In this document: one piece after another, positions 2,583 to 50,268 of the stretch
How the letters are laid out: each line of letters starts with the position of its first letter
Position numbering within the stretch: the first letter of the stretch is position 1
Origin: an uncultured Candidatus Saccharibacteria bacterium
Lineage (GTDB): Bacteria; Patescibacteriota; Minisyncoccia; Phycocordibacterales; CSBR16-119
Direction: 5' to 3'
Length of the DNA: 64,000 nt
NCBI GenBank assembly: GCA_964426385.1
Contig: CAYRQF010000004.1
Span: 12,573 to 76,572 of the forward strand
Position numbers and translations under genes: made by a program
The notes under the pieces: model-generated
The model's input: the letters and a program-made list of their open reading frames with translations, nothing else
What the model was told of the DNA's origin: nothing
Databases searched by the model: none

Positions 2583-2903
2583 CTCCGCAAAACATAAATT
2601 TTCTCACCCTGTGGATCGCAAGCGCACTCACGAAAAAACCGCCTGTAGGCGGATTTTTTCTGCGTGTTCGGGTCCTCGGGTTCTAAAATTTATGTTTTGC
2701 TCCGCTATGAGGTTACCGTCTCGACCCTTGGAAAAACACCGTTAAAAAACCAAAGTGGTTTGCTTTAGAAAACAGTTCTGTTCGAAGAAAGGCCTAAGCC
2801 TTTCTAGTTAACGGTTTTCTTGGCCAAAACCGCTTTGGTTTTAGGTGCTTTTACACTGGGTCTAGATTTTTTGTTACTTTTGCATCATGGCAAAAGTAAG
2901 GAG
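2583..2903. repeat. Copy 1 of a ~320-bp structured intergenic repeat family (palindromic A-module 2583-2712 plus multi-hairpin B-module)
   Basis: The outer stem gcaaaacataaatttt...aaaatttatgttttgc encloses CGCAAGCGC and an inner terminator-like hairpin. The B-module carries the hairpins gaaaggc-ctaa-gcctttc and acttttgc-atcatg-gcaaaagt. It shares order and about 75% identity with 11734-12047. Confidence 0.7.
2633..2662 (+). terminator. Rho-independent terminator after rplS (inside repeat copy 1)
   Basis: aaaaaaccgcctgtaggcggattttttctgcg: a GC stem followed by a T6 run. It is nearly identical to the terminator module after pnp at 8264. Confidence 0.7.
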
Positions 2904-2910
2904 AAGTCTT

Positions 2911-3831
2911 TTATTTCTTCCTCTTCGAGTGAAAATTCTTGTGCACTTGTCGAAGTTGAGTGTCGGTAACGTGGGTATAGATCTGAGTTGTGGCGATGTT
3001 GGCATGGCCGAGCATCATCTGGACTGAGCGGATATCAGCGCCGTTTCGGAGTAGGTCGGTCGCGTAGCTGTGGCGGAGTGTGTGTGGTGTAACTTTTTTG
3101 GATATGCCAGCAATAATGGCGTATTTTTTTACCAGTCTCTCTATCGAGCGAGGAGTGAGGCGCATCTCGCCCTTGGCATTTTTATTCTTGCCGAACTGGA
3201 TGAACATGGCGTCATCCATGTCTTTGCGGAGTTTCAAGTATGCCTTGATCGCACTTTTGGCTTCGTCGGACAGGAATACTACTCGGACTTTCTCGCCCTT
3301 GCCTCGGATAGAGAATTCGTCTTTGGTGAGATCTAGGTCGCGGTTGAGGCTAGCGAGCTCGGCGAGACGAAGTCCTGTGGAGAAGAATAGTTCGAGAATC
3401 GCTTTGTCTCGGAGCGCTGAGATATCTGCGCCCTTCGGGGCAGAGAGGAGTCTCTCGAGTTCAGTGTGTGACATGAGGTCGAGGCTTCTCTGGGCAGTCT
3501 TGGCGAGTTCGATCTTGTCTGGCGACATAGTGGTGACCCCGCGCTTCATCATGTACTTGAGGAAGCTCCTGAGCGCTATGAGGTGATAGTTCTGAGTGTT
3601 CTTCTTCATGCTCGCCGCAGTCTGTCCACGAACCTTCATACCAGACTGGCGGTTCAGGAAAAGACGAAACTCGCGAAGTTTGTTCTCGTCTATGTCGGCA
3701 GCATCACCAATCTTCGCAAAATCGAAAAACTTGGTTAGGTAGTGGTCGTAATTGCGAACAGTCCGGAGGGACAGACCTTTCTCGATCTCGACGTATTCGA
3801 GGAATTGTGTTTTGGCCTCGGCAATCTTCAT
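2911..3831 (-). CDS. tyrosine site-specific recombinase, XerC/XerD family
   Basis: The C-terminal catalytic region HTLRHSYATDLLRNGADIRSVQMMLGHANIATTQIYTHV (R-H-R-Y tetrad) together with the N-terminal core-binding domain. Confidence 0.9.
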   Translation of the reverse strand: MKIAEAKTQFLEYVEIEKGLSLRTVRNYDHYLTKFFDFAKIGDAADIDENKLREFRLFLNRQSGMKVRGQTAASMKKNTQNYHLIALRSFLKYMMKRGVTTMSPDKIELAKTAQRSLDLMSHTELERLLSAPKGADISALRDKAILELFFSTGLRLAELASLNRDLDLTKDEFSIRGKGEKVRVVFLSDEAKSAIKAYLKLRKDMDDAMFIQFGKNKNAKGEMRLTPRSIERLVKKYAIIAGISKKVTPHTLRHSYATDLLRNGADIRSVQMMLGHANIATTQIYTHVTDTQLRQVHKNFHSKRKK

Positions 3832-4440: not shown

Positions 4441-4630
4441 CTAGGGGTTCCAAAAGCTTGCCCGGACACCTATTATTTCATCATTTTGCTTTTTCAAAAT
4501 AATCTAATCAATATTTCGGGTGCAAGTAAGAAAACAGCCTAAAAATACCAATATTCTGGCAAAATAAAAGCCATGAAATAATTGGTGTAAGGGCTTGCGG
4601 AACATTTTTATATATAGTAATATCCGACAC

Positions 4631-4950: not shown

Positions 4951-5052
4951 TGCAAGCCCCCACACCTATATTTTGATTGCGCCGAAGGCGCGTTTATAAA
5001 ACTATAAAAATATAGGTGTGGGGGCAAGCAAAGGAACAATTTATTTTTTTTA
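4951..5052 (+). terminator. Large hairpin with inner hairpin and T-run downstream of rpsO (terminator/attenuator)
   Basis: A 21-bp perfect stem, gcaagcccccacacctatat...atataggtgtgggggcaagc, encloses the GCGCCGAAGGCGC hairpin and is followed by ttattttttttaat. Confidence 0.65.
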
Positions 5053-5091: not shown

Positions 5092-5697
5092 ATGAGTAAA
5101 ATCATTAAACACAAGGAACAGCGAGTCGGTGTATTCATCGACGCGCAGAACCTATATCACACGGCCAAGAATCTCTTCGGCCACAAAGTCAACTTCGGCA
5201 AAATAGTCGAAGATGCAGTAGCAGGTAGAAAACTCGTTCGAGCCATTTCCTATGTCATCACATCTGAATCTGGCGAAGAACAAGGGTTCTTCGACGCACT
5301 GAACAAAGCGGGCATCGAGACGAAAGCCAAGGACCTCCAGATATTTGCCGGTGGTGCCAAGAAAGCTGACTGGGATGTCGGACTCGCCGTCGACGCTATC
5401 ACTATGGCGCCGAAACTCGACGCCGTCATTCTGCTCTCCGGAGATGGAGACTTCATCCCGATGGTCCAGTATCTCCAGATCCACTCGGGTATCCAGGTAG
5501 AAGTCGCATCATTTGGTAAATCTTCTTCGCAGAAGCTTATCGAAGAATGTGATGACTTCATGGATCTCTCTGAGAATCCAGAGAAATATCTTATCGGATT
5601 CCGTAGCCGCCGTGTCCCACGTGGGGGCCGAGGCCGACCGGGAACCGACAAGCCGGCAACGTCCAATGTGACGATAAGTCCAGCGGTACCTAAGTAG
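5092..5697 (+). CDS. NYN-domain (LabA-like, PIN-like nuclease fold) protein with RGG-rich C-terminal tail
   Basis: VGVFIDAQNLYH...DWDVGLAVDAITMAPKLDAVILLSGDGDFIPMV matches the NYN/LabA (DUF88) signature. The C-terminus is RRVPRGGRGRPG. Confidence 0.7.
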   Translation: MSKIIKHKEQRVGVFIDAQNLYHTAKNLFGHKVNFGKIVEDAVAGRKLVRAISYVITSESGEEQGFFDALNKAGIETKAKDLQIFAGGAKKADWDVGLAVDAITMAPKLDAVILLSGDGDFIPMVQYLQIHSGIQVEVASFGKSSSQKLIEECDDFMDLSENPEKYLIGFRSRRVPRGGRGRPGTDKPATSNVTISPAVPK

Positions 5698-5730
5698 GAT
5701 TTAGGATTTAAGAAGTAAGATTTAAAAGCA

Positions 5731-5789: not shown

Positions 5790-5801
5790 ATTGTTCGAAA
5801 C

Positions 5802-5953
5802 GGCCCTTTAGCTCAGCCCGGGAGGTGACTTGATAGTCAAGGATCGTTGTTTGTGTACTAGTTAAGCAAACAGCATGAATTGCCAGTATTTTCACCAGAC
5901 AGAGCGCTCGACTGCCAGTTGAGAGGTCCCTAGTTCAAATCTGGGAAGGGCTA
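5802..5953 (+). tRNA. tRNA-Gly (anticodon GCC) interrupted by a ~80-nt insertion in the D-loop (possible intron or pseudogene)
   Basis: The acceptor GGCCCTT (5802-5808) pairs with AAGGGCT (5946-5952). The D-stem halves GCTC (5811-5814) and GAGC (5902-5905) are separated by 87 nt. The anticodon arm CTCGA-CTGCCAG-TTGAG (5907-5923; U33, GCC, A37) is intact, as is the T-arm CCTAG-TTCAAAT-CTGGG. The insert is closed by ggtga/tcacc. Confidence 0.6.
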
Positions 5954-5957
5954 CAAT

Positions 5958-6104: not shown

Positions 6105-8219
6105 ATGAAAGAAAAGAAATTTAGTTTAGAGCTTGGGGGACAGAATATTGTCGCCACTTTTTCGGATTTTGCCGATCAGTCGAACGCTGTGTTCATGTCC
6201 TGCAACGACACGATCGTTCTAGTTACAGCAGTCATGTCCAAAGAAAAGAGCGATATGCCGTACTTCAACCTCACAGTCGACTATCTCGAGAAGTTCTATG
6301 CTTCGGGCAAGATTGGCGGAGGCAGGTTCATGAAGCGTGAAGGCAAGCCGACAGACGAGGCTATACTTGCTGGGCGTGTTATCGACCGCACCATCCGTCC
6401 ACTCTTCGATCAGACTATGGAATACGGCGTTCAGATCATTGCTACAGTCCTGTCTATGGATGACTCGATTGATCCAGGCATACTCGCCGTGAATGGTGCG
6501 TCTCTCATACTCTCAGTTTCCGAGATCCCATGGGCTGGCCCTGTCGGTGCAGTTAGACTCGGAGAGTTTGAGGGTAAAGTGCTCCTGAACTCATCTCAGA
6601 AAACTCGCCAAGCTGGTTTTGATTACGACCTCATCGTCTGTGGTAAGGATGGGCGGGTGAACATGGTTGAAGCTATCGCTTACCAGATCCCCGAGGACGT
6701 CATCGCTGCCGGACTAGCCAAGGCATCGACTGAGATAACGAAGCTTGAGAACTGGCAGAAGGAGATAGGCAAAGAGCTCGGCAAGACCAAGCGTGTCATC
6801 GAGAAAGAAAATGTTTCAGCTGAAGTTCTGGCAATATTTAATGACAAGATTGCCGGAGTGCTCAAAGACTACGTTATGACCGGCACTCCAGGTAAAGAAA
6901 AGATGGAGGAGATCAAGTCTGTTTGGAAAAAAGCTCTGAAGGACGCAATGCCTGATGCCAAATCTCTGAAGAAAGAGATGGAATACTTCGAAGAAGAGAT
7001 CAACAAGATTATTCACGATGAGGCTGTGCAGAATGACAAGCGTGCGGATGGTCGCAGGATGGATGAGGTGCGAGAACTCTTCGCCAAGGCTGGTGGATTC
7101 TCGTCACGTCTCCACGGAACAGGTATTTTCTATCGCGGAGGTACACACATCCTGACAGCGCTTACGCTCGGTGGTCCAGAAGACATGCAGCTCGTTGATG
7201 GCATGGAGGTAGAAGAGGACAAGCGCTTCATGCATCACTATAACTTCCCACCGTACTCCGTCGGAGAAACTGGTCGGGCTGGATTCGTGAACCGCCGCGA
7301 GGTCGGCCACGGTGCACTCGCTGAGAAGGCTCTCGAAGTCGTGCTCCCGAACAAAGAAGATTTCCCCTATACTATCCGTCTCGTGTCAGAAGCTCTAGCC
7401 TCGAATGGTTCGACATCTCAGGCGTCCATCTGCGCCTCTACTCTCGCTCTCATGGACGGCGGTGTGCCGATCAAGGCGCCAGTCGCCGGCATCGCTATGG
7501 GACTCATGTACAAGGATGAACAGAACTACAAAGTCCTGACTGACATCCAGGGCCCTGAGGATCACCACGGTGACATGGACTTCAAGGCGGCCGGTACTGA
7601 GAAGGGTGTCACAGCCATCCAGCTCGATGTGAAGGTGGAGGGTGTCAGTCTAAAAATTCTCGGTGAAGCACTCGAGCAGTCTAAAAAGGCTCGTATGCAG
7701 ATACTCGAGGTTATCAAGGCGGCTATTCCAGAACCACGCAAAGAGATTAGTCCATTCGCACCGAAGATTGTCGTGACGAAAATCGCTCCATCAAAGATCG
7801 GCCTCGTTATCGGTGGAGGTGGCAAGACAATCAACGAGATTCGCGAGAAGACTGGTACCGAGATCACTATCGAGGACGACGGAACAGTCTACATCACCGG
7901 ACTTGCTGATGGACCAGAGCGTGCCAAGAAGATAATCGAAGACATGGTCTTCGAGTGGCCGATAGGTTCTGTTACTAGTGGGGAAGTTGTCGGTATCAAG
8001 GAATTCGGTGCGTTCGTCAAAATGATGAATGGGCAGGAAGGTATGGCACACATCTCTGAACTTGCAGACTTCCGTGTAGAGAAAGTAGAGGATTACCTCA
8101 AGCTAGGCCAGATAATCCCAGTCAAAGTTGTAAAGATAGAGAACGGCAAGATTGGGCTCTCAATCAAGCAAGCACAGAAAGACTTCCTGACAAAAAAGAG
8201 CTCCGAAAAACCTGTTTAG
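6105..8219 (+). CDS. pnp: polynucleotide phosphorylase (PNPase)
   Basis: Two RNase PH-like domains, the RLHGTGIFYRGGTHILTALTLGG motif, a KH domain (GLVIGGGGKTINEIREKTG) and an S1 domain at the C-terminus. It follows rpsO, as in the canonical operon. Confidence 0.95.
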   Translation: MKEKKFSLELGGQNIVATFSDFADQSNAVFMSCNDTIVLVTAVMSKEKSDMPYFNLTVDYLEKFYASGKIGGGRFMKREGKPTDEAILAGRVIDRTIRPLFDQTMEYGVQIIATVLSMDDSIDPGILAVNGASLILSVSEIPWAGPVGAVRLGEFEGKVLLNSSQKTRQAGFDYDLIVCGKDGRVNMVEAIAYQIPEDVIAAGLAKASTEITKLENWQKEIGKELGKTKRVIEKENVSAEVLAIFNDKIAGVLKDYVMTGTPGKEKMEEIKSVWKKALKDAMPDAKSLKKEMEYFEEEINKIIHDEAVQNDKRADGRRMDEVRELFAKAGGFSSRLHGTGIFYRGGTHILTALTLGGPEDMQLVDGMEVEEDKRFMHHYNFPPYSVGETGRAGFVNRREVGHGALAEKALEVVLPNKEDFPYTIRLVSEALASNGSTSQASICASTLALMDGGVPIKAPVAGIAMGLMYKDEQNYKVLTDIQGPEDHHGDMDFKAAGTEKGVTAIQLDVKVEGVSLKILGEALEQSKKARMQILEVIKAAIPEPRKEISPFAPKIVVTKIAPSKIGLVIGGGGKTINEIREKTGTEITIEDDGTVYITGLADGPERAKKIIEDMVFEWPIGSVTSGEVVGIKEFGAFVKMMNGQEGMAHISELADFRVEKVEDYLKLGQIIPVKVVKIENGKIGLSIKQAQKDFLTKKSSEKPV

Positions 8220-8263
8220 AAATGCGCGCGTTCTCGCTTGTAAACGGCGAGCCGCTCAGTCTA

Positions 8264-8298
8264 GAAAAAATCCGCCCTTCAAAAGGCGGATTTTTTCT
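8264..8298 (+). terminator. Rho-independent terminator after pnp
   Basis: aaaaaatccgcccttcaaaaggcggattttttctgc. Confidence 0.75.
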
Positions 8299-8397
8299 GC
8301 TAAGTCATTTCTAAACAGGTTTTTACTTCGTAGAGAGTCGCCACTTTCCCCCTAGAAGCTAGTCACTAGTCACTAGAACCCTGATATAATTATCACC

Positions 8398-9336
8398 ATG
8401 GCTGACGAACCAACTGATATAAGTAAGGCTTTGGAAAAAGCTGATGAGAGCATTACAACCAAGAATGCTTTGGCGACTAAGCACGCCAAGCAGACAGGTG
8501 AGGTTCGTACGTACGCGACCGATATCGGCGAGATGATGAAGAAGGAAAAAGGCTCCGTTATCAAGATAGCTCTGGCTGAGCAGAAACGTCGCGACGAGTA
8601 CAAGAAAAAGACTGACCCGACCGCAACTCGTAATATTGTCGTTGTTATGCTCGGATTCATCCTCATCGTCGGTGGCATAATGATATTCATTTACACTGTG
8701 ATGAATAGGGCGAGACCTGTAGAGGTGACGAGCTTCGTAACCACACTTCCAAGCTTCATATTTACCGAGAACCAGGTTCAGATCGATGTGACAGAACTCA
8801 ACCGCACAGAGCTCATCGCTGCTATCCGGGCACAGGTGAACAACACCACCCTCGGCGCCGAGACCATTAACAATTTGTTTGTTTCATATCGTGGGGTGAA
8901 CGGACAGGCTCAGATCCCATCGACCTTATTCCTACAGAAACTCGGCGTGGAGATCCCTGATACGTTGGCGCTGAATCTGTATCCAGAATTTTCCCTGGGC
9001 GTATATAGTCTGCCTAGAGGCAATGACCTGTTTATGATATTGCGGGTCAAGGATTTTAATGAGGCGTTCAGTGCAATGCGTGAATGGGAGTCATACATGC
9101 TGACAGAGATGGTCAGGCTATACAGTATCGATACGAAAGATTATGGCAAGGAGATATTTACCAAGGATTTCGAGAACGAGACTATATATAACAAGGAGGC
9201 TAGGATACTCAAGGACGAAGACGGCAAAGCCATACTTTCATACATATTCCTCGATACTCGTACCGTTATGATAACCACTCAGACTGACTCAGTGGGAGAG
9301 GTGATAAAAAGGTTGAATCTACAGACTATTAAGTAG
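8398..9336 (+). CDS. hypothetical single-pass membrane protein
   Basis: Charged N-terminus, then the TM helix IVVVMLGFILIVGGIMIFIYTVM, then an extracytoplasmic domain. TATAAT lies 11 nt upstream of the ATG. Confidence 0.6.
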   Translation: MADEPTDISKALEKADESITTKNALATKHAKQTGEVRTYATDIGEMMKKEKGSVIKIALAEQKRRDEYKKKTDPTATRNIVVVMLGFILIVGGIMIFIYTVMNRARPVEVTSFVTTLPSFIFTENQVQIDVTELNRTELIAAIRAQVNNTTLGAETINNLFVSYRGVNGQAQIPSTLFLQKLGVEIPDTLALNLYPEFSLGVYSLPRGNDLFMILRVKDFNEAFSAMREWESYMLTEMVRLYSIDTKDYGKEIFTKDFENETIYNKEARILKDEDGKAILSYIFLDTRTVMITTQTDSVGEVIKRLNLQTIK

Positions 9337-9366: not shown

Positions 9367-9729
9367 ATGAACGAGACTATTAAATCTCACAAAGAATTGA
9401 TCGTTTGGTAAAAAGCCTTTGAGCTGACTAAAATGATCTATAGGTTGAGTGAGAAATTACCATCAAAGGAAAACTTTAGTCTACAGAATCAAATTAGAAG
9501 AGCTGCCGTGTCCATACCGTCAAACATTGCCGAAGGTCGAAATAGAAAAACTGCGAAGGATTTCCTGCAATTCCTTCGTTTCGCCTTTGGTTCCGTCGCT
9601 GAAGTAGACACTCAGTTGCTTCTGATGAAAGATCTGTATGGAATTAGTTCAAAAGAATGTGATGAATTACTAATAGAGGTAAGCAAGATGCTCAGGTCAA
9701 TGATCGTTAAGCTAGAAGCAAAAAGCTAG
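9367..9729 (+). pseudogene. four-helix-bundle protein (TIGR02436 / Avd-like / 23S-rRNA-IVS-protein family) interrupted by an in-frame TAA at the conserved Gln codon
   Basis: The translation MNETIKSHKELIVW*KAFELTKMIYRLSEKLP...QIRRAAVSIPSNIAEG...FLQFLRFAFGSVAEVDTQL matches the family motif LIVWQKA...RRAAVSIPSNIAEG throughout. The stop at 9419-9421 replaces CAA. The ORF-track call 9433..9729 is the remnant downstream of the stop. Confidence 0.7.
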
Positions 9730-10228: not shown

Positions 10229-11728
10229 ATGTCGTTTTCTCGTGTTTACTCGGCACAAATAAATATTTTAGATGGTCAGCTTATCACCGTCGAGACGGAT
10301 ATTTCTCGCGGACTTCATAATTTTGCCATCGTCGGACTCGCGGATAAAGCCGTGGAGGAAGCACGTGATCGTGTCGGGTCTGCAATCAAAAACTCAGGCC
10401 TGAAATCTCCGAAACAATCGAATCAGAAAATCGTCGTTTCGCTCTCACCGGCGAATGTGAAAAAAGAAGGTTCGTATTTTGATCTCGCTATCGCTCTCGG
10501 GTACATGCTCTCGAATGATGAGATCAAATTCGACCCTGAGGGTCGGATATTTCTCGGAGAGCTCGCACTAAATGGGGAACTGAAGCCGGTCAAAGGAGTG
10601 CTATCACTCGTAAAGTCCGCCAAGGCTTTAGGCTTTCGGGAAGTTTATGTCCCAACACAGAATGCCAAAGAAGCAGCGCTGATCGAGGGTATACAGATAT
10701 TTCCTGTTAAAAATCTGAAAGAGGTCGTGGAACACTTGAGTGCCGACAAGCCGTTCTGCATAGACTGTCAGCCTGTAACACCTATCGTATACGGAGAGCG
10801 CAAATTTGCTATAGATTTTGCCGACGTCCGAGGTCAGGAGCTCGCCAAGCGCGGGCTCGAGATCGCGGCAGCTGGTGGGCACAACATCGCTATGTATGGC
10901 CCGCCAGGCACAGGGAAAACTATGCTCGCTAGGGCATTCTCATCCATACTTCCCGGATTATCCAAAGAAGATATCCTAGAAGTCACTGCGATACATAGTA
11001 TCGTCGGCATACTCGAAGACTCACTAGTGACAGAGACGCCTTTTCGCTCACCGCACTCGACCAGTAGTTACGTGTCAGTTATCGGTGGCGGAACATTCCC
11101 GAAGCCTGGAGAAGTAACGCTCGCACACAAAGGCGTTTTATTTCTAGACGAATTCCCGGAGTTCGATCGTCGTGTGCTCGAGTCCCTGCGTCAGCCACTC
11201 GAGGACCGTGTAGTGAACATCGCCCGCGCTAGAGGCTCTGCTACGTATCCAACCAATTTCATCCTCATTGCCGCTATGAATCCACCACCAGCGAATGCCA
11301 GTGCTGCCGAGATCGTACGATATCGGAAAAAGATTTCAGGGCCGATTATGGACCGTATCGATATGTGGGTGAACGTCGTGAATATCGATTATGACAAGCT
11401 CGGGAGCAAAGAGCGCGAGGGTGAGCTGAGTGAAAATATTAAAAAGAGAGTGGTGACTGCTCGTGATAAACAGAAGGCGAGACTAGGGCAGTCTCGTGCA
11501 CGGACGAATGCTGAGATGGGAGTCAAAGATATCGACAAGCTCATCACGCTCGGGAAAGATGTAAAGGATATCCTGAATACCACAGCCAAGAAACTGAATC
11601 TATCAGCGAGAGCGTATCATAGAGTTATCAAGCTCGCTCGGACGATAGCGGATCTAGATGCTAAGGAGGAGATACAGATGAAGCATGTACTAGAGGCGCT
11701 TCAATACCGACCGAGAGAGATGGCGTAG
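10229..11728 (+). CDS. comM: YifB/ComM-family Mg-chelatase-like AAA+ ATPase
   Basis: N-terminal Lon-like domain, Walker A GPPGTGKT, and a C-terminal ChlI-like domain. The length and layout are typical of ComM/YifB. Confidence 0.9.
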   Translation: MSFSRVYSAQINILDGQLITVETDISRGLHNFAIVGLADKAVEEARDRVGSAIKNSGLKSPKQSNQKIVVSLSPANVKKEGSYFDLAIALGYMLSNDEIKFDPEGRIFLGELALNGELKPVKGVLSLVKSAKALGFREVYVPTQNAKEAALIEGIQIFPVKNLKEVVEHLSADKPFCIDCQPVTPIVYGERKFAIDFADVRGQELAKRGLEIAAAGGHNIAMYGPPGTGKTMLARAFSSILPGLSKEDILEVTAIHSIVGILEDSLVTETPFRSPHSTSSYVSVIGGGTFPKPGEVTLAHKGVLFLDEFPEFDRRVLESLRQPLEDRVVNIARARGSATYPTNFILIAAMNPPPANASAAEIVRYRKKISGPIMDRIDMWVNVVNIDYDKLGSKEREGELSENIKKRVVTARDKQKARLGQSRARTNAEMGVKDIDKLITLGKDVKDILNTTAKKLNLSARAYHRVIKLARTIADLDAKEEIQMKHVLEALQYRPREMA

Positions 11729-11733
11729 AAGGG

Positions 11734-12047
11734 CGCTCCGCAAAACATAAGCTTTCTCAAACCCTCGAAGACGCAAGCGCCGGCTTTTGCCTAAAACGGC
11801 AAAACCGGTTACGTTCTCGGATTTTCGAAAGCTTATATTTTGCTCCGCTACGAGGGAGACGGGATGACCCTTGTAAAAACATCGTCAAGAAACCAGGATG
11901 TTTTGCTTTAGAAGGCCGTATTGTCTGAACAAAGCCAAAGCTTTGTGAGTTTACGGCTCTTCTTAGCCAAAAACATTCTGGTTTTAGGTGTTTTTACACT
12001 GGGTCTTGGGCTTTTGTTACTTTTGCCCCAAGGCAAAAGTAAGAGAG
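11734..12047. repeat. Copy 2 of the structured intergenic repeat family (A-module 11734-11860 plus B-module)
   Basis: The A-module is about 95% identical to 50143-50260. The B-module is about 75% identical to 2713-2903, with covarying hairpins caaagc-caa-gctttg and acttttgc-cccaag-gcaaaagt. Confidence 0.7.
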
Positions 12048-12120
12048 GTGGCCATAAAATATCCAAACCTTTATATTATTTTTTGCAGATGGCTTAAACT
12101 TATACTTATGACGCTAATCA

Positions 12121-12149
12121 TAGTAAAAATCCCCGAACGGGGATTTTTA
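12121..12149 (-). terminator. Rho-independent terminator of the M23 peptidase gene
   Basis: aaaaatccccgaacggggattttt lies directly after the stop codon on the minus strand. Confidence 0.7.
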
Positions 12150-13178
12150 CTAGTACATCGCATCGGCTATAGCTCGACCGTTTATGCCAGATTTGCCTGG
12201 ACGAATCTCGAAGTGTAGATGAGGGCCTGTTGAGCGGCCGGTGTTTCCGACGGCGCCTATTACCTGACCTTTGGTGACCTTCTGTCCTTGTTTGACGTCT
12301 ATTCGTGACTGGTGAGCATACAGAGTCTGTGTACCGTTAGCGTGTCCGATGATAGTGAGATTACCGTATCCTCCGTTCCAGGCATTGCCACCTTTGACCA
12401 CCATGACGATACCGTCTGCCATGGCCTTGATCGGAGTACCAGTTTTCGCGGCGATATCTACGCCGTGGTGAGAGGCAGTGTGTTGACGGCTCTCGACGCC
12501 GACAACCGGTCTCGCATAGTAGCCTTTGCTCGAAACAGTCGTTTTAGAAGTTGTCTTCGTCGCTAATTTTACTGGCTCAGTGTCCTCTATCTCGCCTCTC
12601 GGGATGATGAGTGTGCTACCTGCCACCAACTGAGCACCTTCTTCTAGACCGTTGAATATGAGGATCTCGCCAACGTCTCCGCCGAAGTCTTTGGCAACTT
12701 TTTCTATAGTCACGCCAGGTCTGACAGTATATTTGACCCCGTTGATAGGGAGGATGATGATGGTGTCACCTTTTTTCACTGTACCTTTGAGAGGGATATT
12801 GTTTGCCCAGCGGATAGTGTTTGGGGAGATGTCGTACATCTCAGCGATAGCGGCTATCGTATCTCCATCCTTAACCGTATATACGGCGATGTCTTTTGAC
12901 GCGGACATGTTGGCGACTTCTGCCTCTGTGTCCGTGACTGGACTGAAGTTCGCTACGAGAGCAAAGTCTTCCGTCCTGATTTCGTCAGACCCACCTGTAG
13001 CACCGGTAGCGGCTGGCCGTATCCTCGAGCTTAGGAGTGTCACCGTCTGGGAGTTGTATGAGTTAGTCCGTGGTGAGTAGAGCGCTTCTTGTTCTGAAAG
13101 GGCGATGCCAGCACCGAGGAGAGGGCTCACCATGAATGTGGTCACCGCTACGACTGGACCAAAAGAAACATACGCCAA
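12150..13178 (-). CDS. M23-family metallopeptidase with two LysM domains
   Basis: LysM motifs YTVKDGDTIAAIAEMYDISPNTIRWANNI and YTVRPGVTIEKVAKDFGG. The M23 catalytic region contains HHGVDIA...GHANGTQTLYAHQS...GNTGRSTGPHLHFEIR. Confidence 0.9.
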   Translation of the reverse strand: MAYVSFGPVVAVTTFMVSPLLGAGIALSEQEALYSPRTNSYNSQTVTLLSSRIRPAATGATGGSDEIRTEDFALVANFSPVTDTEAEVANMSASKDIAVYTVKDGDTIAAIAEMYDISPNTIRWANNIPLKGTVKKGDTIIILPINGVKYTVRPGVTIEKVAKDFGGDVGEILIFNGLEEGAQLVAGSTLIIPRGEIEDTEPVKLATKTTSKTTVSSKGYYARPVVGVESRQHTASHHGVDIAAKTGTPIKAMADGIVMVVKGGNAWNGGYGNLTIIGHANGTQTLYAHQSRIDVKQGQKVTKGQVIGAVGNTGRSTGPHLHFEIRPGKSGINGRAIADAMY

Positions 13179-13517: not shown

Positions 13518-16500
13518 ATGTCGTCTCGTGAAATACCACCAAATTCGGGGCCTAACCCTAGTGAGGGTTCTTCTGACTCCCCGGAGAAAAGCGAGTCGCG
13601 CCAACGAGAAGAAAACGAAAAGGCTACAATCGAATCCATTGTGGCAAAGAAAATGTCTGGCCAACCTCTTTCTGCTTCCGAAGAAGCTCAATACGGAACA
13701 AAGGATATTGCAAAAAAGGTAGACAAAGAAATCGTCCGGTTGTCAAAAGAAGCGATAAAGAGCACTAAACCTGATTTACCACCCGGTAGACAGAGAACAG
13801 GTAAACTAAAAGCAAATGGTGGTCTGGATTCCTTGGCGGCAGTTTCTCAGCGTATGAAAGACAAGCAGGAGCTTGAAAGAATACACGCAGAAGCACCAGA
13901 AGAGATAATAGAGGCCTTGCAAGATAGAGGGCTAAGTACGACTGGTACACCCGATCAATTAATAGAGCGCCTGCTTAACGCTGGGATAGATCTTGCAGAT
14001 TCTCCAGAAGAACATAAACCAGTTACTGTTCAGGTAGAGGCAAAGAAAGCCCCTGATATCAGAGCGCTAAATGCAGAGAGAAGGAAAAAAGAGGCGGAAT
14101 TGCGAAGTATCGGGCTATCAGTTAATCCTGTGGTGTCAGCAGAAGCAGCTGTCGAAGCTTCTACTTCCAGCGAAGCTGACAAGAATGAAAAAGTTGCTGA
14201 GATTGTCGGGAGTATCAAGGCCACTTTAGAAAAAGAATCAGTTCCTACTACCGAGCGACCTTCGGAGGTAAAGAAAGATTCTAAGCAGGAAAATATTATT
14301 CCTATAGAAGACCTCGCTCGGATGGAAAAGTTTGTTTTGCGCAGGAGAGCAGGTGCACCCATCGAAGAAGACGAAGTAAGACTATTTAATAAATACGAAA
14401 AGGAGATCAATACTCTCTTGTCTAAGCCAGAAGTAAAAAAGGAAGAATCAAAGAAGTCGGAACCTGAATCAAAGCCGCTAGTTCAAGAAAAAGTTACAGA
14501 CGAGCAGATCGGCGACGTTGCTCGAGCGATAGGTGTCGCTGGTGTTAAGGTTGAAAACCTTCCTGAGAATCAGAAGAGAATATATCAGGCCTATAAGGAT
14601 CGCATCGATGCCTTGGTTGTACGCATTAGTCCTCCGGATAAGGAGGCGGTAAAGAGTCTAGGAGGTGCTCAGAAGATAAACTTTTTCCGCGAGCAGACCA
14701 AAGCCGGAATTCTCCCGAAGAACGAGGAAAATGAAGACTTCTTGTATAAAAATTTTAATGAGATAGTAAATGATGATGAGACTAAGCTTGCTTACTTTGC
14801 AGCTGACTTCGTGGAAAATGGCGACAACCCTGAGCGTACCACTGAGAATCAAGTATTTATTAACCAGAATATTGACGCAATAAACGCCAAGATAAAAGAC
14901 TTCGGCGGAACGACGTTTTTCACTAAACAAGAAGCAGCTCCAGCACCCGTTGTTGCGCCAGAAGAAGCACCGAAGCCGCAGCAGCCAGAGAAGAAGAGTG
15001 TTTCGTTGGCAGAGCAGATCAAGGATTATGTATATAGATACACACACTGGGAGGACATGTCCTCACCAGAGGATAGGCAGTTTCATGCCGATAATGGTCC
15101 GGCGATCAACGAGGCGATTGCTGTATTTGCCAAGCAGGTAGAGGACCTAGCGAAGGATATGTTCATCAACGAGATGACTGAACAGCAGTTGTCTGCTGAA
15201 AAACTTAAATTTTATAAAGAGAATGAGCAGAATGTAGACATCGCGATCAGTAGGCTTGCCAAAGGCGAGAGGAATTTCGAGAAAAATGTCGCGGAGGTGC
15301 ATGCAAATGTAGTAGAAGATAAGAAAAGAATCGCGGGACTTATCAAGGATCCAGAAGTTCAAGAATTGATCACAAAGATGAATCTCGATATGCAGTACGT
15401 TTACAGCCTGTCGCCGGAGTTTTTCGACCTAGACTCGAACAAGCAAATCTATATCCTAGACAAGATCCGCCAGAAGATAAGCCTCGACGCTACATTTGAA
15501 GCAGAAGACCGAGTCAAGAAACAGCTCGGCCGAAAAGCGAAGTCACCACTCGATTGGTTTAATAAGAGAATTGAGCTACTCACCAAAGAATTCCAAGAGA
15601 CCAAGGCTCGTAGGGAGGTTATCGACGAGGCCAAGAATAGCGGCCTAGGAGATTATGCGGGAGATATAGAAGCGATGACTAAGCATGTCGCCAAATTAGA
15701 CATGAATATCAGCTACAGCGCTGAGGGTAAGCCGATACTTGAATATGTAAATCCAAAATCTTTCGAATGGGATCCGGAGTATATAAAAAGGTTCAAAAAA
15801 AGCGAGAGCCCTGTCGAGTATGTAAATAGATTCAATGAGGCTGCGACCGCAGTTTCGGAGATGCCCCACGAATGGAGCCAGCCAAATGCGAACATCATTG
15901 ACAAGATGAAGTACAAGAAAGCTTGGGCCAAGTATGAAGTACAGCGCGACATCCTGTTTGGTGCTGTCGTCGAACAGAAGAAAAAAGAAATTCCTGACAA
16001 CGAAGAAGAGGCCTCGAAGTCTGCGATGGAATGGATGACTATGATGAATAGCAAAGTCAGGATGAATCAGCTCCTGACAGAGTATCCTGAGATCGAGCAG
16101 TTCGAGAATAAAGGCCCTTCTTTTAATCCAGAGGATCTAAACTCCAAAGAATTCCAGTGGACAGGAAAGAAAGCATTGTTTGCCGCAGGATGGTTTACCA
16201 AGGATCTGGTTCGTGATAACTGGGCAGAAGTCTCTGCGGCTATTTTTGCCGGAGGACTCGGCGGGTTACTTGGCCTGCGCAAGAAATGGGTGGAATACGA
16301 TGATGCCGAAAAGAGAAAGAGATATGGCCAAGCTGTAGGGGGTAAGAATATAGAAAAGGGTATAAAAAAGTTTATAAATGCTGGCGAGACAGCGGATAGA
16401 CTTCAGTGGTTTTTAGACAAGATCGAGTCTCCAGAGCCTGGAGAAAATATAGAAAAGTTTGCCGAGCGACTCAAGAACCACCTAGCGATAATAGACGAGC

Positions 16501-19040
16501 GAATCTCTTCCGGAAGAGTAAACTACGGCGACAAAAAAGAATCCCTCATAAATAAGATAAAGATTATCGAGAAGATGGCCGAAGCTCAGACGAAACTTTT
16601 CACTATGGGGCAGTTCAATGAGGTCGTCGAGAGCCAGAGTATGTTCAACAAGTTTAGCGTAACTATGAATAAGTGGCTTCCTGAGGCGGTAACGAACTTC
16701 TTCGATAAGCATGGTGATAATTCTAAATCAAACGACAGACTCGCCGATAGGTTCGATCGATCCCAGAAAGATAGCCAAGCCATGAAGGCAAAAGCCGCGC
16801 AGCTAACGCTCGCATTTGGCAAAGGTGCCGCGCTGGCGGCGACGGCATTCGGCGCTGGTTGGTTGGTGAGAGAGGGGTGGGACCTCATCGGTTCTGGTCC
16901 CGCTATACCAGGCAGAACAAATGATTTGATAGACGGTAGTGAGGGGGGCGGAAACGAGGTTCCTCGAACACCTACTCCTGGCGTGCCTGGTAGGCCGGCA
17001 GTTCCAGAGGGATATATTCCTGAGGCAGATAGGGAAACAGTTCCATCAGTACTCGATACAGTGCCTAAACCGCCGAGTTCGTCTGTGCTCGACAATGTAC
17101 CTAAACCACCAGAGCCTGGCGCAACTGTCGTAATAGAGGAAACTCCAGAGCCGAAAGCCCCCGAAGCAACAGACTCAACTCCAAAATCTCCGGAGACTAA
17201 GTCTCGGATGAAAGAAGTTCTCGGAACTCGAGATGACGGTCATTTGGATCTAGCGGAGATGAAGAAGAATTTCCAGATATCCAAAGACGCTTCAGGTGGG
17301 TTCGACATCGACATAAAGAACATTAACGATTTCGACAAGGTCAAAGCTTATATCAAGAATCCGATAAAGTTCGTAGATTTTTCACAGACTGACTTACCGG
17401 CAAATCTAGAGAAACCTCAGTGGGGTATCCAAGCCATGATCAGCGCCAAAGGTGAGATCAAGGAATTCTTGGCGACACAGCAGTATCTAGAAGAACTAGA
17501 GAAAGCCGATCCTAAATCTGGAGATATACCAGCACTCAAAGAGCACATGAAAGTCATGGGCGGGGAGATCAGAGCCAAGATGGCAGAATTCTACAGGAAG
17601 AATGCTGGGAAGGTTATAGAAGGAAAACTATTCAAGCCTTTCGAAGACTGGGTAGGGCCGACATCGGCTATTCCTAGCAGTATGGATGATGCGACCGCAA
17701 GTCTCGATGGTGGAGGCGGGTTCATCCCGCCAGAACCAGAGCAGGAATACACTGTCTATGATCCGAGCGAAACACCAAAGGTGCCTAGTCCTGAACCCGT
17801 CTCAACAGATACATCCGCTGGTCAAGAAGTCGTGACGTCACCACCCGCGCAGACCTATGAAGTCTGGACTCCTCCCGCGCCTGTCACAGAAGCGCCTACA
17901 CCTGTCGAAGCTCCGACTGAGTATAAAGTTTACGATTCAGGATTGGCACCTGAGTCAGTGGCGCCGACACCCGAACCTCAGCCTGAACCTGCGACAGAGT
18001 ATACGGTTTACAATCCAGGCATGGCGCCGGAAACTTCACCCGCCACTCCAACGCCAGAACCAGAACAGAAATACACCGTCTATGACCCTTCTGAAAAGAT
18101 AGCACCAGAGGTTACTAAAACAGCTAGTGGAGAGTACTCCCTCGAGAAAACTCCTACGAGTCGTGTCATAGAGGTAGACAATGAATACATGAAAGGCAAG
18201 ATAACTCTTGTTGAGGACAAGAGCGGAGTAGTAAAAGAAATATACGATGTAACTACTAAAGATCTTGATCCGGACAAATATTTCGTTGAAAATTGGAAGG
18301 ACGGCTTAACTGCAAAAGAAATCGAAGACAAAGAGATATTCTTGAGAGCGTATCTTAATAACCAAGATATGATAGTCGGCCAAGTTGTGGAGGAAGGAGA
18401 TAAGTTCTATAACGCTGTGGATGCCAGAGTCGATCTTTCGTTTGAAAAGATCAAAGACGTGCTGAAGACTGAACACATGATTGCTGAAGAGGCAGACACT
18501 CCAGAGGTTGCTTCGGGTAATGTTTCGGAGGCGACCATCTCGAAAGAGGAAATGGACGTTGCCAAAGAATCCGGCGTCGAAGTCGAAGAAGCACCTCGGC
18601 CTATCGAGAGTACTCAACATGGTGAGTTAAAAGGCGAATACGTCTCAGAACTTCAGACTTCTCCGACTGAGAGAGTTATCAGCTTTAACAATCCTGACGG
18701 TGAAGTCCGTGGACAGATTCAAATAGTGTATGACGAGAAAACTGGAGAGGTTGAGGGTGTTAAATACAGTAAAGACACGGGAAGCCTCTTCTCTGTTAGG
18801 CAGGAGGTTGTTTGGGCAGAGCATATGGAGGATAATTGGCGTAATAATCTCGGTACCAGGTCATCAATGGGGGTAGAGATCGAGGCTAAAAGATACATAA
18901 GATACAAGGGTATACTGCAGTCCTGTGGTTTCAAACCAGGTACTCCAGAGTATAAATACTTTAACGGGGAGTTAGAGGCTATCATCAAAAAGTCTGGCAA
19001 ATTCATCAAAGAAGAAACCATTTTCCCTTCAAAGGGCTAA
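13518..19040 (+). CDS. giant (1840 aa) hypothetical protein with SAP-like motif, Lys/Glu-rich coiled regions, a Gly/Ala hydrophobic segment and tandem Pro-rich 'EYTVYDP' repeats
   Basis: Uninterrupted 5.5-kb ORF. SAP-like IIEALQDRGLSTTGTPDQLIERLLNAGI near the N-terminus. Five repeats of the form (E/Q)(Y)(T/K)VYD(P/S)...PxPEP at aa ~1420-1560. No N-terminal signal peptide. Confidence 0.7.
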   Translation: MSSREIPPNSGPNPSEGSSDSPEKSESRQREENEKATIESIVAKKMSGQPLSASEEAQYGTKDIAKKVDKEIVRLSKEAIKSTKPDLPPGRQRTGKLKANGGLDSLAAVSQRMKDKQELERIHAEAPEEIIEALQDRGLSTTGTPDQLIERLLNAGIDLADSPEEHKPVTVQVEAKKAPDIRALNAERRKKEAELRSIGLSVNPVVSAEAAVEASTSSEADKNEKVAEIVGSIKATLEKESVPTTERPSEVKKDSKQENIIPIEDLARMEKFVLRRRAGAPIEEDEVRLFNKYEKEINTLLSKPEVKKEESKKSEPESKPLVQEKVTDEQIGDVARAIGVAGVKVENLPENQKRIYQAYKDRIDALVVRISPPDKEAVKSLGGAQKINFFREQTKAGILPKNEENEDFLYKNFNEIVNDDETKLAYFAADFVENGDNPERTTENQVFINQNIDAINAKIKDFGGTTFFTKQEAAPAPVVAPEEAPKPQQPEKKSVSLAEQIKDYVYRYTHWEDMSSPEDRQFHADNGPAINEAIAVFAKQVEDLAKDMFINEMTEQQLSAEKLKFYKENEQNVDIAISRLAKGERNFEKNVAEVHANVVEDKKRIAGLIKDPEVQELITKMNLDMQYVYSLSPEFFDLDSNKQIYILDKIRQKISLDATFEAEDRVKKQLGRKAKSPLDWFNKRIELLTKEFQETKARREVIDEAKNSGLGDYAGDIEAMTKHVAKLDMNISYSAEGKPILEYVNPKSFEWDPEYIKRFKKSESPVEYVNRFNEAATAVSEMPHEWSQPNANIIDKMKYKKAWAKYEVQRDILFGAVVEQKKKEIPDNEEEASKSAMEWMTMMNSKVRMNQLLTEYPEIEQFENKGPSFNPEDLNSKEFQWTGKKALFAAGWFTKDLVRDNWAEVSAAIFAGGLGGLLGLRKKWVEYDDAEKRKRYGQAVGGKNIEKGIKKFINAGETADRLQWFLDKIESPEPGENIEKFAERLKNHLAIIDERISSGRVNYGDKKESLINKIKIIEKMAEAQTKLFTMGQFNEVVESQSMFNKFSVTMNKWLPEAVTNFFDKHGDNSKSNDRLADRFDRSQKDSQAMKAKAAQLTLAFGKGAALAATAFGAGWLVREGWDLIGSGPAIPGRTNDLIDGSEGGGNEVPRTPTPGVPGRPAVPEGYIPEADRETVPSVLDTVPKPPSSSVLDNVPKPPEPGATVVIEETPEPKAPEATDSTPKSPETKSRMKEVLGTRDDGHLDLAEMKKNFQISKDASGGFDIDIKNINDFDKVKAYIKNPIKFVDFSQTDLPANLEKPQWGIQAMISAKGEIKEFLATQQYLEELEKADPKSGDIPALKEHMKVMGGEIRAKMAEFYRKNAGKVIEGKLFKPFEDWVGPTSAIPSSMDDATASLDGGGGFIPPEPEQEYTVYDPSETPKVPSPEPVSTDTSAGQEVVTSPPAQTYEVWTPPAPVTEAPTPVEAPTEYKVYDSGLAPESVAPTPEPQPEPATEYTVYNPGMAPETSPATPTPEPEQKYTVYDPSEKIAPEVTKTASGEYSLEKTPTSRVIEVDNEYMKGKITLVEDKSGVVKEIYDVTTKDLDPDKYFVENWKDGLTAKEIEDKEIFLRAYLNNQDMIVGQVVEEGDKFYNAVDARVDLSFEKIKDVLKTEHMIAEEADTPEVASGNVSEATISKEEMDVAKESGVEVEEAPRPIESTQHGELKGEYVSELQTSPTERVISFNNPDGEVRGQIQIVYDEKTGEVEGVKYSKDTGSLFSVRQEVVWAEHMEDNWRNNLGTRSSMGVEIEAKRYIRYKGILQSCGFKPGTPEYKYFNGELEAIIKKSGKFIKEETIFPSKG

Positions 19041-28353: not shown

Positions 28354-28447
28354 TTAGCTGATGGCTTATAGCTGTTAGCTTATAGAGAAATAATAAATTC
28401 CTAAAAGCTAAACGCTATCCGCTATAAGCTCGTGTTATAATACATTC
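28354..28447 (+). promoter_or_regulatory. Conserved promoter/operator module (copy A): GCTTATAGC palindromes followed by the extended -10 TGTTATAAT
   Basis: atggcttatagctgttagcttatagag...cctaaaagc...cgctataagctcgtgttataata is shared with 31695-31790. Related half-copies lie at 9337-9366 and 9730-9761. Confidence 0.55.
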
Positions 28448-31694: not shown

Positions 31695-31790
31695 CAGAGC
31701 TTACAGCGTATGGCTGTTAGCTTATAGAAATTCCACAAAATACCTAAAAGCAATAAGCTATACGCTAAAAGCTCGTGTTATAATATTTCC
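31695..31790 (+). promoter_or_regulatory. Conserved promoter/operator module (copy B)
   Basis: atggctgttagcttatagaa...cctaaaagcaataagctatacgctaaaagctcgtgttataata is homologous to 28354-28447. Confidence 0.55.
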
Positions 31791-34962: not shown

Positions 34963-36588
34963 ATGCAAAACAAAAAACTTTTCAAAATTCTAGGACTCAT
35001 CGCACTTTTTCTCCTCATTATTTTCTCATGGGTGGTTATACGCGATGCCCAAAGGAAAAAGATTCTTAACACTCCGACACCGACAGGACTCGAGAATCCT
35101 TTTGGTGTGAGTCCTGACGGAGAAGGGTTTCCTCGAAGCGGGGAGGACGATGTCGACATCGGTACTCCCGATGAGACACCAGTAACAGGGGGGACTACAG
35201 GGACTAGCGTCATAGTTGTCGAGGATAATCCGGCCCTCAAACAACTATATACGAAACCCGTCGCGGGATTCACTTTCTGGAACGAAGAGCGAGAGCTACC
35301 AGAGGAACTCTCGACGACACCATCCGCATCGGTTGTCGAGGTTTATGATTTCTCAGGCTACAAAACAGTACGATTCGGCGACAAAGCTGACGAGATAGTG
35401 ACTATCAAGACTGTATTAAATAGGCAGACTCCAAGCCCGGGTCTCATCATCGACAGCAATTACGACACAGACATGAAGAACGCCGTCGTAGATTTCCAGA
35501 ACAGAAATGGTCTCGGAGGAGATGGTGTAATTGGGCCAAAGACTTATGCCAAATTCAATAGTTTTCAGGGTATCACCACGTTCTCTTCTGTAAAGAAGCC
35601 GATAAACACAGAGACGGTACCGATGGTTCGCTTCGTTGATGCCGGATCGGGCATCATGTCTGATCAAGCAATTCGAAAAGCAGAAGAGGTGCGCAAGATT
35701 ACTACGGTGTCGGTTCCCAGGGTAGCTGAAGCATTCTTTGATAATACAAAAAATAACGTTGTGATGAGATATGTCAAAGATAATGTCATCCAGACTTATG
35801 TAGCCAAACTTACTTTTGCCAAGATTGACCCCAACCTCACCTGGGCTGAGAAGGAGGCCATAACCAAGATTGCCGAGGTTACGGGCGAGTTTCTACCAGA
35901 GAACATCGACACTGTCGCGATGTCTCGCGACAAAAAGAGTTTGTTTTACATGACGCGAGTCGGTAGTGGTTCAGCCGGGCTCGTATATAACTTTTCGAGT
36001 AAGACCAAGAAGCAGGTATTCGACTCACCACTTCGAGAGTGGCTCATCGACTGGGGTAATGATATAAAAGTAAATCTCACAACAAAGGCTTCAGGTCAGG
36101 CTCTCGGGTATTCGTTTGTTCTCGACACGAAGACGGGTTCTTTCTCTAAGACTCTCGGAGGGGCAAACGGGCTCACGACTCTAATGAGTCCAGATGGTAA
36201 GAAGGTTCTGTACGCTGAAGCAACTGGAGGAAGCCTTTCTACATATGTCACCGAGCTCAGTACTGGCAAGAAAACTTCCATATCTCCATCTGCCATGCCA
36301 GAGAAGTGTGTTTGGACACGAGACTCAAAAGCCATATACTGTGCCGCCCCGATCAAGAGCGTATCGTTTGCCTATCCCGACGATTGGTATAAGGGAAAGG
36401 TAAGCTTCAGTGATGCACTGTGGATGATCGACGCTACAGACTATGTCGGTAACATAGAGTATGATTTCAAATCAAAAAACGGCGTTGATGTGGACGCCAT
36501 GAATCTCCAGCTCCGGGATGAGGAGGACTACATAGGCTTCATCAACAAGAAAGATGGAAGTCTCTGGGGACTAGATTTATCGAGATAG
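34963..36588 (+). CDS. exported protein with peptidoglycan-binding (PG_binding_1-like) motif and TolB-like beta-propeller region
   Basis: N-terminal TM. NYDTDMKNAVVDFQNRNGLGGDGVIGPKTYAKF matches the PG-binding helical-bundle motif. C-terminal repeats such as SPDGKKVLYAEATGGSLSTYV resemble TolB/WD40-like blades. Confidence 0.5.
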   Translation: MQNKKLFKILGLIALFLLIIFSWVVIRDAQRKKILNTPTPTGLENPFGVSPDGEGFPRSGEDDVDIGTPDETPVTGGTTGTSVIVVEDNPALKQLYTKPVAGFTFWNEERELPEELSTTPSASVVEVYDFSGYKTVRFGDKADEIVTIKTVLNRQTPSPGLIIDSNYDTDMKNAVVDFQNRNGLGGDGVIGPKTYAKFNSFQGITTFSSVKKPINTETVPMVRFVDAGSGIMSDQAIRKAEEVRKITTVSVPRVAEAFFDNTKNNVVMRYVKDNVIQTYVAKLTFAKIDPNLTWAEKEAITKIAEVTGEFLPENIDTVAMSRDKKSLFYMTRVGSGSAGLVYNFSSKTKKQVFDSPLREWLIDWGNDIKVNLTTKASGQALGYSFVLDTKTGSFSKTLGGANGLTTLMSPDGKKVLYAEATGGSLSTYVTELSTGKKTSISPSAMPEKCVWTRDSKAIYCAAPIKSVSFAYPDDWYKGKVSFSDALWMIDATDYVGNIEYDFKSKNGVDVDAMNLQLRDEEDYIGFINKKDGSLWGLDLSR

Positions 36589-36613
36589 ATTTAAGATTTA
36601 GGAAGTAGGATTT

Positions 36614-36648
36614 AAGAAGAAACCCGCCATTGGCGGGTTTCTTCTTCT
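36614..36648. terminator. bidirectional Rho-independent terminator between convergent genes
   Basis: gaaacccgccattggcgggtttcttcttc, flanked by gatttaag/cttaaatc repeat arms. Confidence 0.7.
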
Positions 36649-36670
36649 CTTAAATCTTAAATCCTAATTC

Positions 36671-50071: not shown

Positions 50072-50142
50072 GGGTCAGGAGTTTTGGTCTGAGGTTTCGT
50101 TCGGACTATACCACGAAAGACTATAATAGTCAAATAGGGCTA

Positions 50143-50260
50143 CGCAAAATGTAAGCTTTCTCAAATCCTCGAAGACGCAAGCGCCGGCTTTTGCCTAAAA
50201 CGGCAAAACCGGTTACGTTCTCGGATTTTCGAAAGCTTACATTTTGCTCCGCAGAGAGGG
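50143..50260. repeat. Copy 3 (A-module only) of the structured palindromic repeat family
   Basis: The outer stem gcaaaatgtaagctttc...gaaagcttacattttgc pairs perfectly and carries compensatory CA-to-TG/AT-to-CA changes relative to copy 2. The 72-nt core is identical to copy 2. Confidence 0.7.
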
Positions 50261-50268
50261 AGTTATTT

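Follow-up and report, generated by a model that had tools for sequence, protein, structure and literature searches.

Two hairpin-forming repeat modules with conserved base pairing in intergenic regions of a Patescibacteria chromosome

The DNA analysed here is a single stretch of 64 kb (the window), in which a gap of 421 nt (11729-12149) separates the stop codon of comM, a gene for a YifB/ComM-type Mg-chelatase-like ATPase, from the stop codon of a gene for a LysM/M23 peptidase. ComM homologues place the host among the Patescibacteria/Paceibacteria (Candidate Phyla Radiation, CPR). From comM onwards the gap contains a palindromic module A (11735-11858) held between CTCCG(C) direct repeats, a module B/C of about 190 nt (11859-12049) composed of a long and a short hairpin, a segment designated as the tail, and a bidirectional intrinsic-terminator hairpin. 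Relatives of the window were represented by syntenic loci reached via ComM homologues, and are referred to by locus numbers (L). The terminator is the sole element of the gap that is also present in relatives without repeats, and in L024 a 27-nt gap at the comM locus holds this hairpin alone. The tail also occurs in L023, which is without B/C, and in L021 it is inverted jointly with B/C. Where intergenic gaps in the region are unusually long, most of them are filled by the repeats. The coordinates of the features are shown in Table 1.

Table 1 Features of the comM locus and further repeat copies in the window
Feature	Coordinates	Strand	Remarks
comM, YifB/ComM-type Mg-chelatase-like ATPase gene	10229-11728	+	stop codon 11726-11728
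LysM/M23 peptidase gene	12150-13178	-	convergent with comM
Left direct repeat GCTCCGC of module A copy A2	11735-11741	+	7 nt past comM stop codon
Module A palindrome (A2)	11740-11843	.	30-nt arms 11740-11769 and 11814-11843; apical hairpin 11780-11808
Right direct repeat GCTCCGC and mini-hairpin CTCC-N8-GGAG	11842-11858	+	linker GCTCCGCTACGAGGGAG
Module B, irregular 140-nt long hairpin	11866-12005	+	helices 1-4 of model R1
Module C, short hairpin	12010-12049	+	core 11-bp stem 12017-12027 with 12032-12042; variable loop
Tail between module C and terminator	12050-12120	+	direct sequence comparison
Bidirectional intrinsic-terminator hairpin	12121-12152	both	common to comM (+) and LysM/M23 peptidase gene (-)
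Module A copy 1 (A1)	2583-2712	+	6 nt past rplS stop codon
B/C of copy 1	2723-2906	+	B 2723-2862, C 2867-2906; 216 bits
A-type copy A4	8201-8337	+	overlaps PNPase stop codon
Solo A copy A3	50140-50262	+	7 nt from stop codon of HIT gene (-), orientation opposite to HIT gene

The arrangement beside comM, designated copy 2 (11734-12047), is one of two full copies that lie less than 10 kb apart within the window; copy 1 (2577-2910) is situated between rplS and an Xer-like tyrosine recombinase gene. In both, the order is long hairpin A, linker GCTCCGCTAYGAGG, 140-nt hairpin B and short hairpin C, and the copies are 77-80 % identical with the same architecture. The 427-nt comM intergenic region folds with -168.4 kcal/mol, compared with -106.4 ± 5.8 kcal/mol in shuffled sequences (z -10.7), the opposite strand folds overall about as well, and the folding of copy 1 gives a z of -11.0 against its shuffles. 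An earlier note on this DNA had located the hairpins correctly, with copy 2 inside the coordinates that it gave and copy 1 outside them, and had put the divergence between the copies at about 25 %; the measured difference is 20-23 %. Chance similarity or a plain segmental duplication of no structural meaning might be considered, since the window contains no more than two full copies, but is of next to negligible probability given the z of about -11, the failure of any of 500 shuffles to reach the observed covariation, and the retention of the fold by homologues elsewhere.

The base changes between the copies were compared hairpin by hairpin. In module B, GAAAGGC-CTAA-GCCTTTC of copy 1 (2787-2804) corresponds to CAAAGC-CAAA-GCTTTG of copy 2 (11931-11946), a compensatory change that had been described correctly. 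A local hairpin AAACATC...GATGTTT, also proposed earlier, was not borne out, with 7 of 7 pairs in copy 2 only and 5, 5, 3 and 4 of 7 pairs elsewhere; in the fold that is supported, AAACA(C/T)C has a more distant GGTG as its partner, and replacement of C by T produces a G.U wobble. The terminal hairpin ACTTTTGC-N6-GCAAAAGT does keep its stem as claimed, but invariance between the two window copies is by itself uninformative; GC-to-UA double changes occur in this stem in more distant copies (L038/L039). Set against shuffled and slid-register controls, the pairing of every module exceeded by far what chance would give, and the compensatory pairing first seen by eye is real and statistically solid. 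Its attribution to selection on structure rather than sequence was in part too strong: sequence does not vary across genera in the C stem or in several internal loops of B. Selection on structure is nevertheless supported, and is sharpened by a split between the modules, with the choice between an RNA and a DNA hairpin, left open earlier, falling on the RNA-like side for B/C and on the DNA-like side for A.

Module A was found in 16 copies across 8 genomes, ranging in size from 80 to 150 bp and including the window copies A1 to A4 together with those of L023, L025, L028, L031, L040 and L043. Every copy lies 0-12 nt from, or overlaps, a stop codon, and the neighbouring genes are rplS, pnp, comM, uvrD, an NYN-domain gene and a gene encoding 310 aa, with A3 beside a HIT gene. 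CT(C/T)CG(C) borders both sides of all 16 copies, and each is trailed by CTCCG(C)-loop-GAGG/GGAG. The A-type layout comprises a long outer stem around a terminator, constant CTCCG(C) borders and the trailing CTCC...GGAG mini-hairpin. The apex of A1 (stem 2639-2652) is a predicted bidirectional intrinsic terminator, and A4 is built as a three-way element, in which an inner hairpin is accompanied by a terminator-like one (8263-8298, judged by eye), so that both A1 and A4 carry bidirectional terminator hairpins directly behind stop codons. Terminator-like tips are frequent in module A, but many copies, among them A2, A3 and L031, have no terminator at the tip. The terminal inverted-repeat arms of A are 15-27 bp long, and the ends of B pair as well. 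The interior of A occurs in both orientations between the same flanks, that of A4 being the reverse complement of the copy at the L028 NYN locus. Copies from the same genome are more alike than copies from the same locus in relatives, as with A2 and A3 (93.5 % identical) and the ComM and NYN copies of L028 (82 % identical, inverted). Elsewhere in the window, a further terminator hairpin (36614-36646) lies within a longer imperfect palindrome of GATTTAAGA-like repeats (36587-36680), and similar 'aggatttaggatttaagaag' repeats trail the NYN gene (5694-5725).

The flanking CTCCG(C) repeats bear on how A might have arrived at its sites. With regard to a possible target-site duplication, the NYN copy of L028 has the variant CTTCGC on both of its flanks. 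The orthologous NYN site of L031 has a solo CTCCGCTTAAAAG, the only such site seen, and the clean empty comM and pnp sites are without the CTCCG motif. CTCCG(C) may be part of the element rather than a target duplication, because it is nearly constant and is missing from the empty comM and pnp sites. A role as a DNA uptake sequence was rejected, GCTCCGC being observed 7 times in the window against 6.6 expected.

In the basal stem of A, 15 of 16 pairs are changed on both sides among 15 copies. The proportion of paired cells is 94.2 %, compared with 62.6 ± 2.2 % in shuffles (0 of 500 reach the observed value), a percentage that is partly circular because the copies were ascertained by requiring the stem; the variety of pair types is not circular. 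The changes are nearly all from one Watson-Crick pair to another, with 66 double-change cells, 2 one-sided cells and 3 G.U cells, and both strands fold equally, without strand asymmetry. The double Watson-Crick swaps, the equal strands and the flipped interior fit a DNA palindrome, and module A looks like a DNA-level, MITE/SPRITE-like element. Ripley-type template switching is a proposed mechanism for the correction of quasi-palindromes, and template switching or arm copying in A could generate apparent compensation without selection on RNA.

Folded single-strand recombination sites offer another model for A. In integrons, attC sites function as a folded single strand, and A resembles them in keeping its structure while its sequence varies and in standing immediately after a stop codon. 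If A hairpins were sites of this kind (attC or CTX-phage attP-like), used by a tyrosine recombinase with CTCCG(C) as the crossover core, the identical 6-7-bp repeats at both junctions, the AAC...GTT at the stem base of some copies and the Xer-type gene that abuts copy 1 would all fall into place. The attC core RYYYAAC...GTTRRRY, however, is not conserved, the stem bases being GCAAAAC, GCAAAGC, GAAAGCC or GAAAAAC, with GCAAAGC or GAAAGCC in the L025 copies and thus no constant AAC/GTT. The genes upstream belong to the core housekeeping set (rplS, pnp, comM, uvrD) and are not cassettes, neither an integron integrase nor a cassette array is present, the sole recombinase in the window is of Xer type, and the Xer-like gene is also found in relatives without the elements. 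This model is considered very improbable. A resemblance of the CATAA...TTATG stem bases to a dif/Xer site was likewise rejected, as there is free covariation of these bases from copy to copy.

Module B/C was found in 5 copies in 4 genomes, at four non-orthologous places and in both orientations relative to the neighbouring genes. The copies are the two of the window and those of L021, L038 and L039, the last two of which are nearly identical. Covariance model R1 matches B/C without A in L021 (221 bits), L038 (111 bits) and L039 (73 bits), and detected no further B/C in about 300 kb of other related loci. In copy 1, B/C abuts the 3' end of the Xer-like gene (-, 2911-3831). In copy 2 it occupies the comM 3' UTR position upstream of the terminator, in copy 1 and L021 it lies just downstream of a terminator, and in L038/L039 it is antisense to both neighbours in an AT-rich stretch, with a terminator about 70 nt further on. 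Direct repeats were absent from the B/C junctions in comparisons of the window copy 2 locus, L021, L023 and L038/L039, and no conserved promoter was found when the upstream flanks were read directly. The C hairpin was rejected as an intrinsic terminator as no T-tract follows it on either strand, and coding potential was rejected as none of the short ORFs that cross the element is preserved from copy to copy; no reading frame is conserved because indels break the frames. A lone C-like hairpin, TTTTTGTTACTTTTTC-TATCAA-GAAAAAGTAAGGAG, without B, was seen on a viral-classed contig (L042 2308-2339; IMG/VR UViG 3300000059_000201) when the C-stem pattern TTTTGTTACTTTT-N10-AAAAGTAAG was run on viral contigs, and by rough estimate about 0.01-0.05 chance matches would be expected for its 22 specified bases.

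The fold of B/C was recovered in several alignments. In a MAFFT alignment of 3 sequences, 19 of 71 pairs are double-changed, compared with 8.1 ± 2.0 in shuffles (0 of 500) and 1-4 in slid registers. With all 5 copies placed on the model, double changes affect 33 of 71 pairs and 95.1 % of cells are paired against 80.4 ± 1.5 % in shuffles (0 of 500), and an independent alignment with MAFFT and RNAalifold arrived at the same fold, in which 24 of 61 pairs are compensated. Module B alone has 29 double-changed pairs among the 5 copies, in helices 1, 2 and 4, with a G.U:A.C ratio of 20:3. For the whole of B/C, the aligned strand has G.U and A.C cells at 29:3, against a composition-predicted ratio of 1.4:1 (p ~1e-4, for cells that are not fully independent), which indicates that the fold is selected on one strand, either as RNA or as one specific single strand of DNA; G.U pairs make up 8.8 %. 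The copies range from 43 % to 26 % GC, yet blocks in the loops and in the C stem stay invariant, and asymmetric bulges and loops are conserved. The B/C module fits a single-stranded, RNA-like fold.

These data also bear on the idea that the 'compensation' throughout is a mutational by-product of DNA palindromes, arising from quasi-palindrome template-switch correction or gene conversion of the arms. The changes in the A stems are of the kind expected from it, with their double swaps, their equal folding on both strands and an interior that flips between identical flanks. In B/C, the excess of G.U over A.C cells and the survival of the fold over large divergence speak against it, as do the asymmetric bulges and loops, because symmetric copying of arms would erase them. 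The idea is considered improbable.

The main rival to a mobile repeat for B/C is a genuine family of small-RNA genes, acting in trans or in cis and present in multiple copies, the fold of which would be kept for a cellular function of the RNA and the relocation of which was due to ordinary rearrangement and not to mobility. The strand-specific fold with its G.U pairs would suit such genes, as would the loops and C stem that stay invariant across genera despite the shift in GC content, and the L038/L039 element resembles a gene in that it is situated, divergently from the NYN gene, in an AT-rich region with a terminator about 70 nt later, an arrangement shared by window copy 2, where a terminator also follows about 70 nt after the element. 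Small-RNA genes would not, however, be expected at four non-orthologous places in both orientations among five copies, nor to be missing from most of the sampled relatives, to be without a conserved upstream promoter, or to occur as two 78 %-identical copies within 10 kb. A small-RNA gene family is judged unlikely.

The distribution of the modules among relatives is uneven. In genes, the relatives compared are about 83 % identical to the window at the nucleotide level, which makes them genus-level relatives and means that presence and absence might in part be due to deletions rather than insertions. The comM locus of L024, L038/L039 and L045-L050 holds nothing more than a bidirectional terminator, or the genes there overlap. 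In L023 this locus contains the tail and an A copy of another subtype, without B/C, and in L021 it is devoid of A and has both B/C and the tail in inverted orientation. At the rplS and pnp loci of L022, where A and B/C are missing, there are 30-nt terminators compared with 330 and 155 extra bases in the window. Solo A copies occur in the window at 50140 and 8201 and in L023, L025, L028, L031, L040 and L043, and B/C occurs without A in L021, L038 and L039; A and B/C are independent modules. An independent Logan contig, with 100 % identity to the window, has its ends within C of copy 1 and within A4, which is typical of the behaviour of repeats in assembly graphs, and such repeats break metagenome assemblies.

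Several families of small bacterial repeats share features with the modules. A high degree of folding, co-transcription and enrichment between convergent genes are known from BOX, RUP and SPRITE repeats (PMC3049150; review PMC3184786). BOX shares its transcripts with adjacent genes, and its mobilisation is believed to occur in trans (PMC3049150, PMC3184786). The present repeats are like pneumococcal BOX (boxA-boxB-boxC) in being modular, with separable and strongly base-paired sub-elements. They differ in that the A and C modules of BOX pair with each other whereas A, B and C here fold separately with no A-C pairing encountered, and there is no sequence similarity, the host phylum is different, and A and B/C separate in different genomes. 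The terminator feature of SPRITE-like repeats is found in the A1 apex and, by eye, in A4, but is missing in A2, A3 and C. With REP/BIME and REPIN sequences, which are mobilised by RAYT transposases and recognised as hairpins, the repeats have in common an extragenic palindrome behind genes, but REPs are GC-rich, 20-40 nt long, and have a GTAG head and a RAYT gene, whereas the present elements are AT-rich, 80-190 nt long, and have neither; no RAYT/Y1 transposase domain was found among the window proteins. REP-type extragenic palindromes can stabilise upstream mRNA (review PMC3184786).

Module A shares with MITEs (Correia, RUP, ERIC, Nezha) its terminal inverted repeats, flanking direct repeats, multiple copies, either orientation of the interior and variable presence among relatives. 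It differs in having an identical flanking repeat at every copy, where a variable target duplication would be expected, and no cognate insertion sequence was found in the 64-kb window. Module B/C is further from MITEs, as it is strand-specific and without terminal direct repeats and symmetric arms. Two additional long hairpin insertions relative to L022 (window 4460-4594 and 4951-5030) were noted separately; they share a terminal inverted-repeat core, CACACCTAT, and are flanked by the 6-bp direct repeats GCTTGC and GCAAGC, which are reverse complements of each other, and the empty sites in L022 carry single copies of the 6-bp repeat. These two insertions have the hallmarks of a classical MITE family, one that is separate from A and B/C.

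Taken as a whole, the locus is best explained, with moderate confidence, as a composite of two independent non-coding multi-copy modules, which are probably intergenic repeats of a non-autonomous type, selected for their structure, as in the MITE-like, REP, BOX, RUP, SPRITE and ERIC families. Such repeats would be mobile without encoding their own enzyme and would be spread in trans by one encoded elsewhere. They would be tolerated mainly just downstream of genes, where, as co-transcribed 3' UTR hairpins, they might shield the mRNA of the preceding gene or terminate it. Recognition would be of the hairpin itself, which would explain why the pairing is conserved and the sequence is not. Against this account speak the position of B/C beyond a terminator in copy 1 and L021, its antisense orientation in L038/L039, the lack of direct repeats at its junctions and its small number of copies. 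The window offers no candidate for the mobilising partner: among 44 ORFs scanned with Pfam there was no transposase, reverse transcriptase or HUH enzyme, and no TnpA, TnpB or IscB domains or IS200/IS605 remnants adjoin any of the 5 B/C copies. A more elaborate version, in which B/C is the RNA of an uncharacterised CPR mobility or targeting system (a retro-mobile ncRNA, or a stand-alone guide/bridge-like RNA that serves a recombinase encoded elsewhere) and the A borders mark insertion directed to stop codons, is decidedly improbable; if it were true, the strand-specific fold and invariant loops of B/C would be protein-recognition features, and the constant CTCCG(C) borders would reflect sequence-specific insertion aimed at the first bases after stop codons.

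Searches of Rfam with both copies, at gathering thresholds and with permissive E-values, gave no family, be it 6S RNA, HEARO/omega RNA, group II intron domains, ribozymes, riboswitches or any other, and at E<=10 or, on the repeat regions, E<=1 only chance-level hairpin matches were obtained. A 21-nt exact pattern of A run on genome contigs and a 20-nt exact pattern of B run on metagenome and viral contigs, both of which are too strain-specific, returned chance matches only, as checked by BLAST, and blastn against phage and plasmid collections gave no match. The present repeats are a new family within a familiar class, that of small structured intergenic repeats, rather than a system of a new kind. 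Members of this class are well known from Proteobacteria and Firmicutes, and a limited literature search found no earlier description of any in Patescibacteria/CPR. Patescibacteria have genomes of about 1 Mb that are thought to spare little room for selfish or regulatory non-coding DNA. A 190-nt fold, strong covariation and no Rfam family make B/C an obvious candidate from which to build a new model of an RNA or a mobile element. The occurrence of the DNA-like A and the RNA-like B/C at one locus indicates that compensatory changes alone do not reveal the selected molecule.

The remainder of the 64 kb is an ordinary CPR chromosome, with genes for ribosomal proteins, EF-Tu, PNPase and NusA, a type-IV-secretion-like cluster and large proteins without Pfam domains. 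An ORF of 1840 aa (13518-19040, +) has no Pfam domain, and its position is kept among relatives while its length is highly variable (1164-1972 aa). A 98-aa ORF of the 23S_rRNA_IVP/Avd-like four-helix-bundle family (9433-9729, +) is inserted relative to L022, is found at the same place in L040/L041 and has no reverse transcriptase nearby. An AGCT-rich block (gcttatagctgttagcttatag ... ctataagctcgtgttataat) is repeated at 28364-28440 and 31705-31785, directly upstream of two genes of the type-IV-secretion-like cluster, and the blocks resemble a shared promoter or operator. Only two tRNAs in the 64 kb reach gathering scores in Rfam. A tRNA-like gene at 5800-5955 (+), with an acceptor GGCCCTT...AAGGGCT, a T-arm CCTAGTTCAAATCTGGG and an anticodon loop CTGCCAG (possibly Gly-GCC), has a D-arm region apparently interrupted by an insert of about 80 nt; it was not called by ARAGORN, and the Rfam tRNA model matches its 3' part only (21.7 bits). 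In L038, a relative with 74 % ComM identity, ARAGORN calls two adjacent odd tRNAs downstream of pnp (8365-8531), one with a 2-base 'anticodon' and the other a tRNA-SeC(tca).
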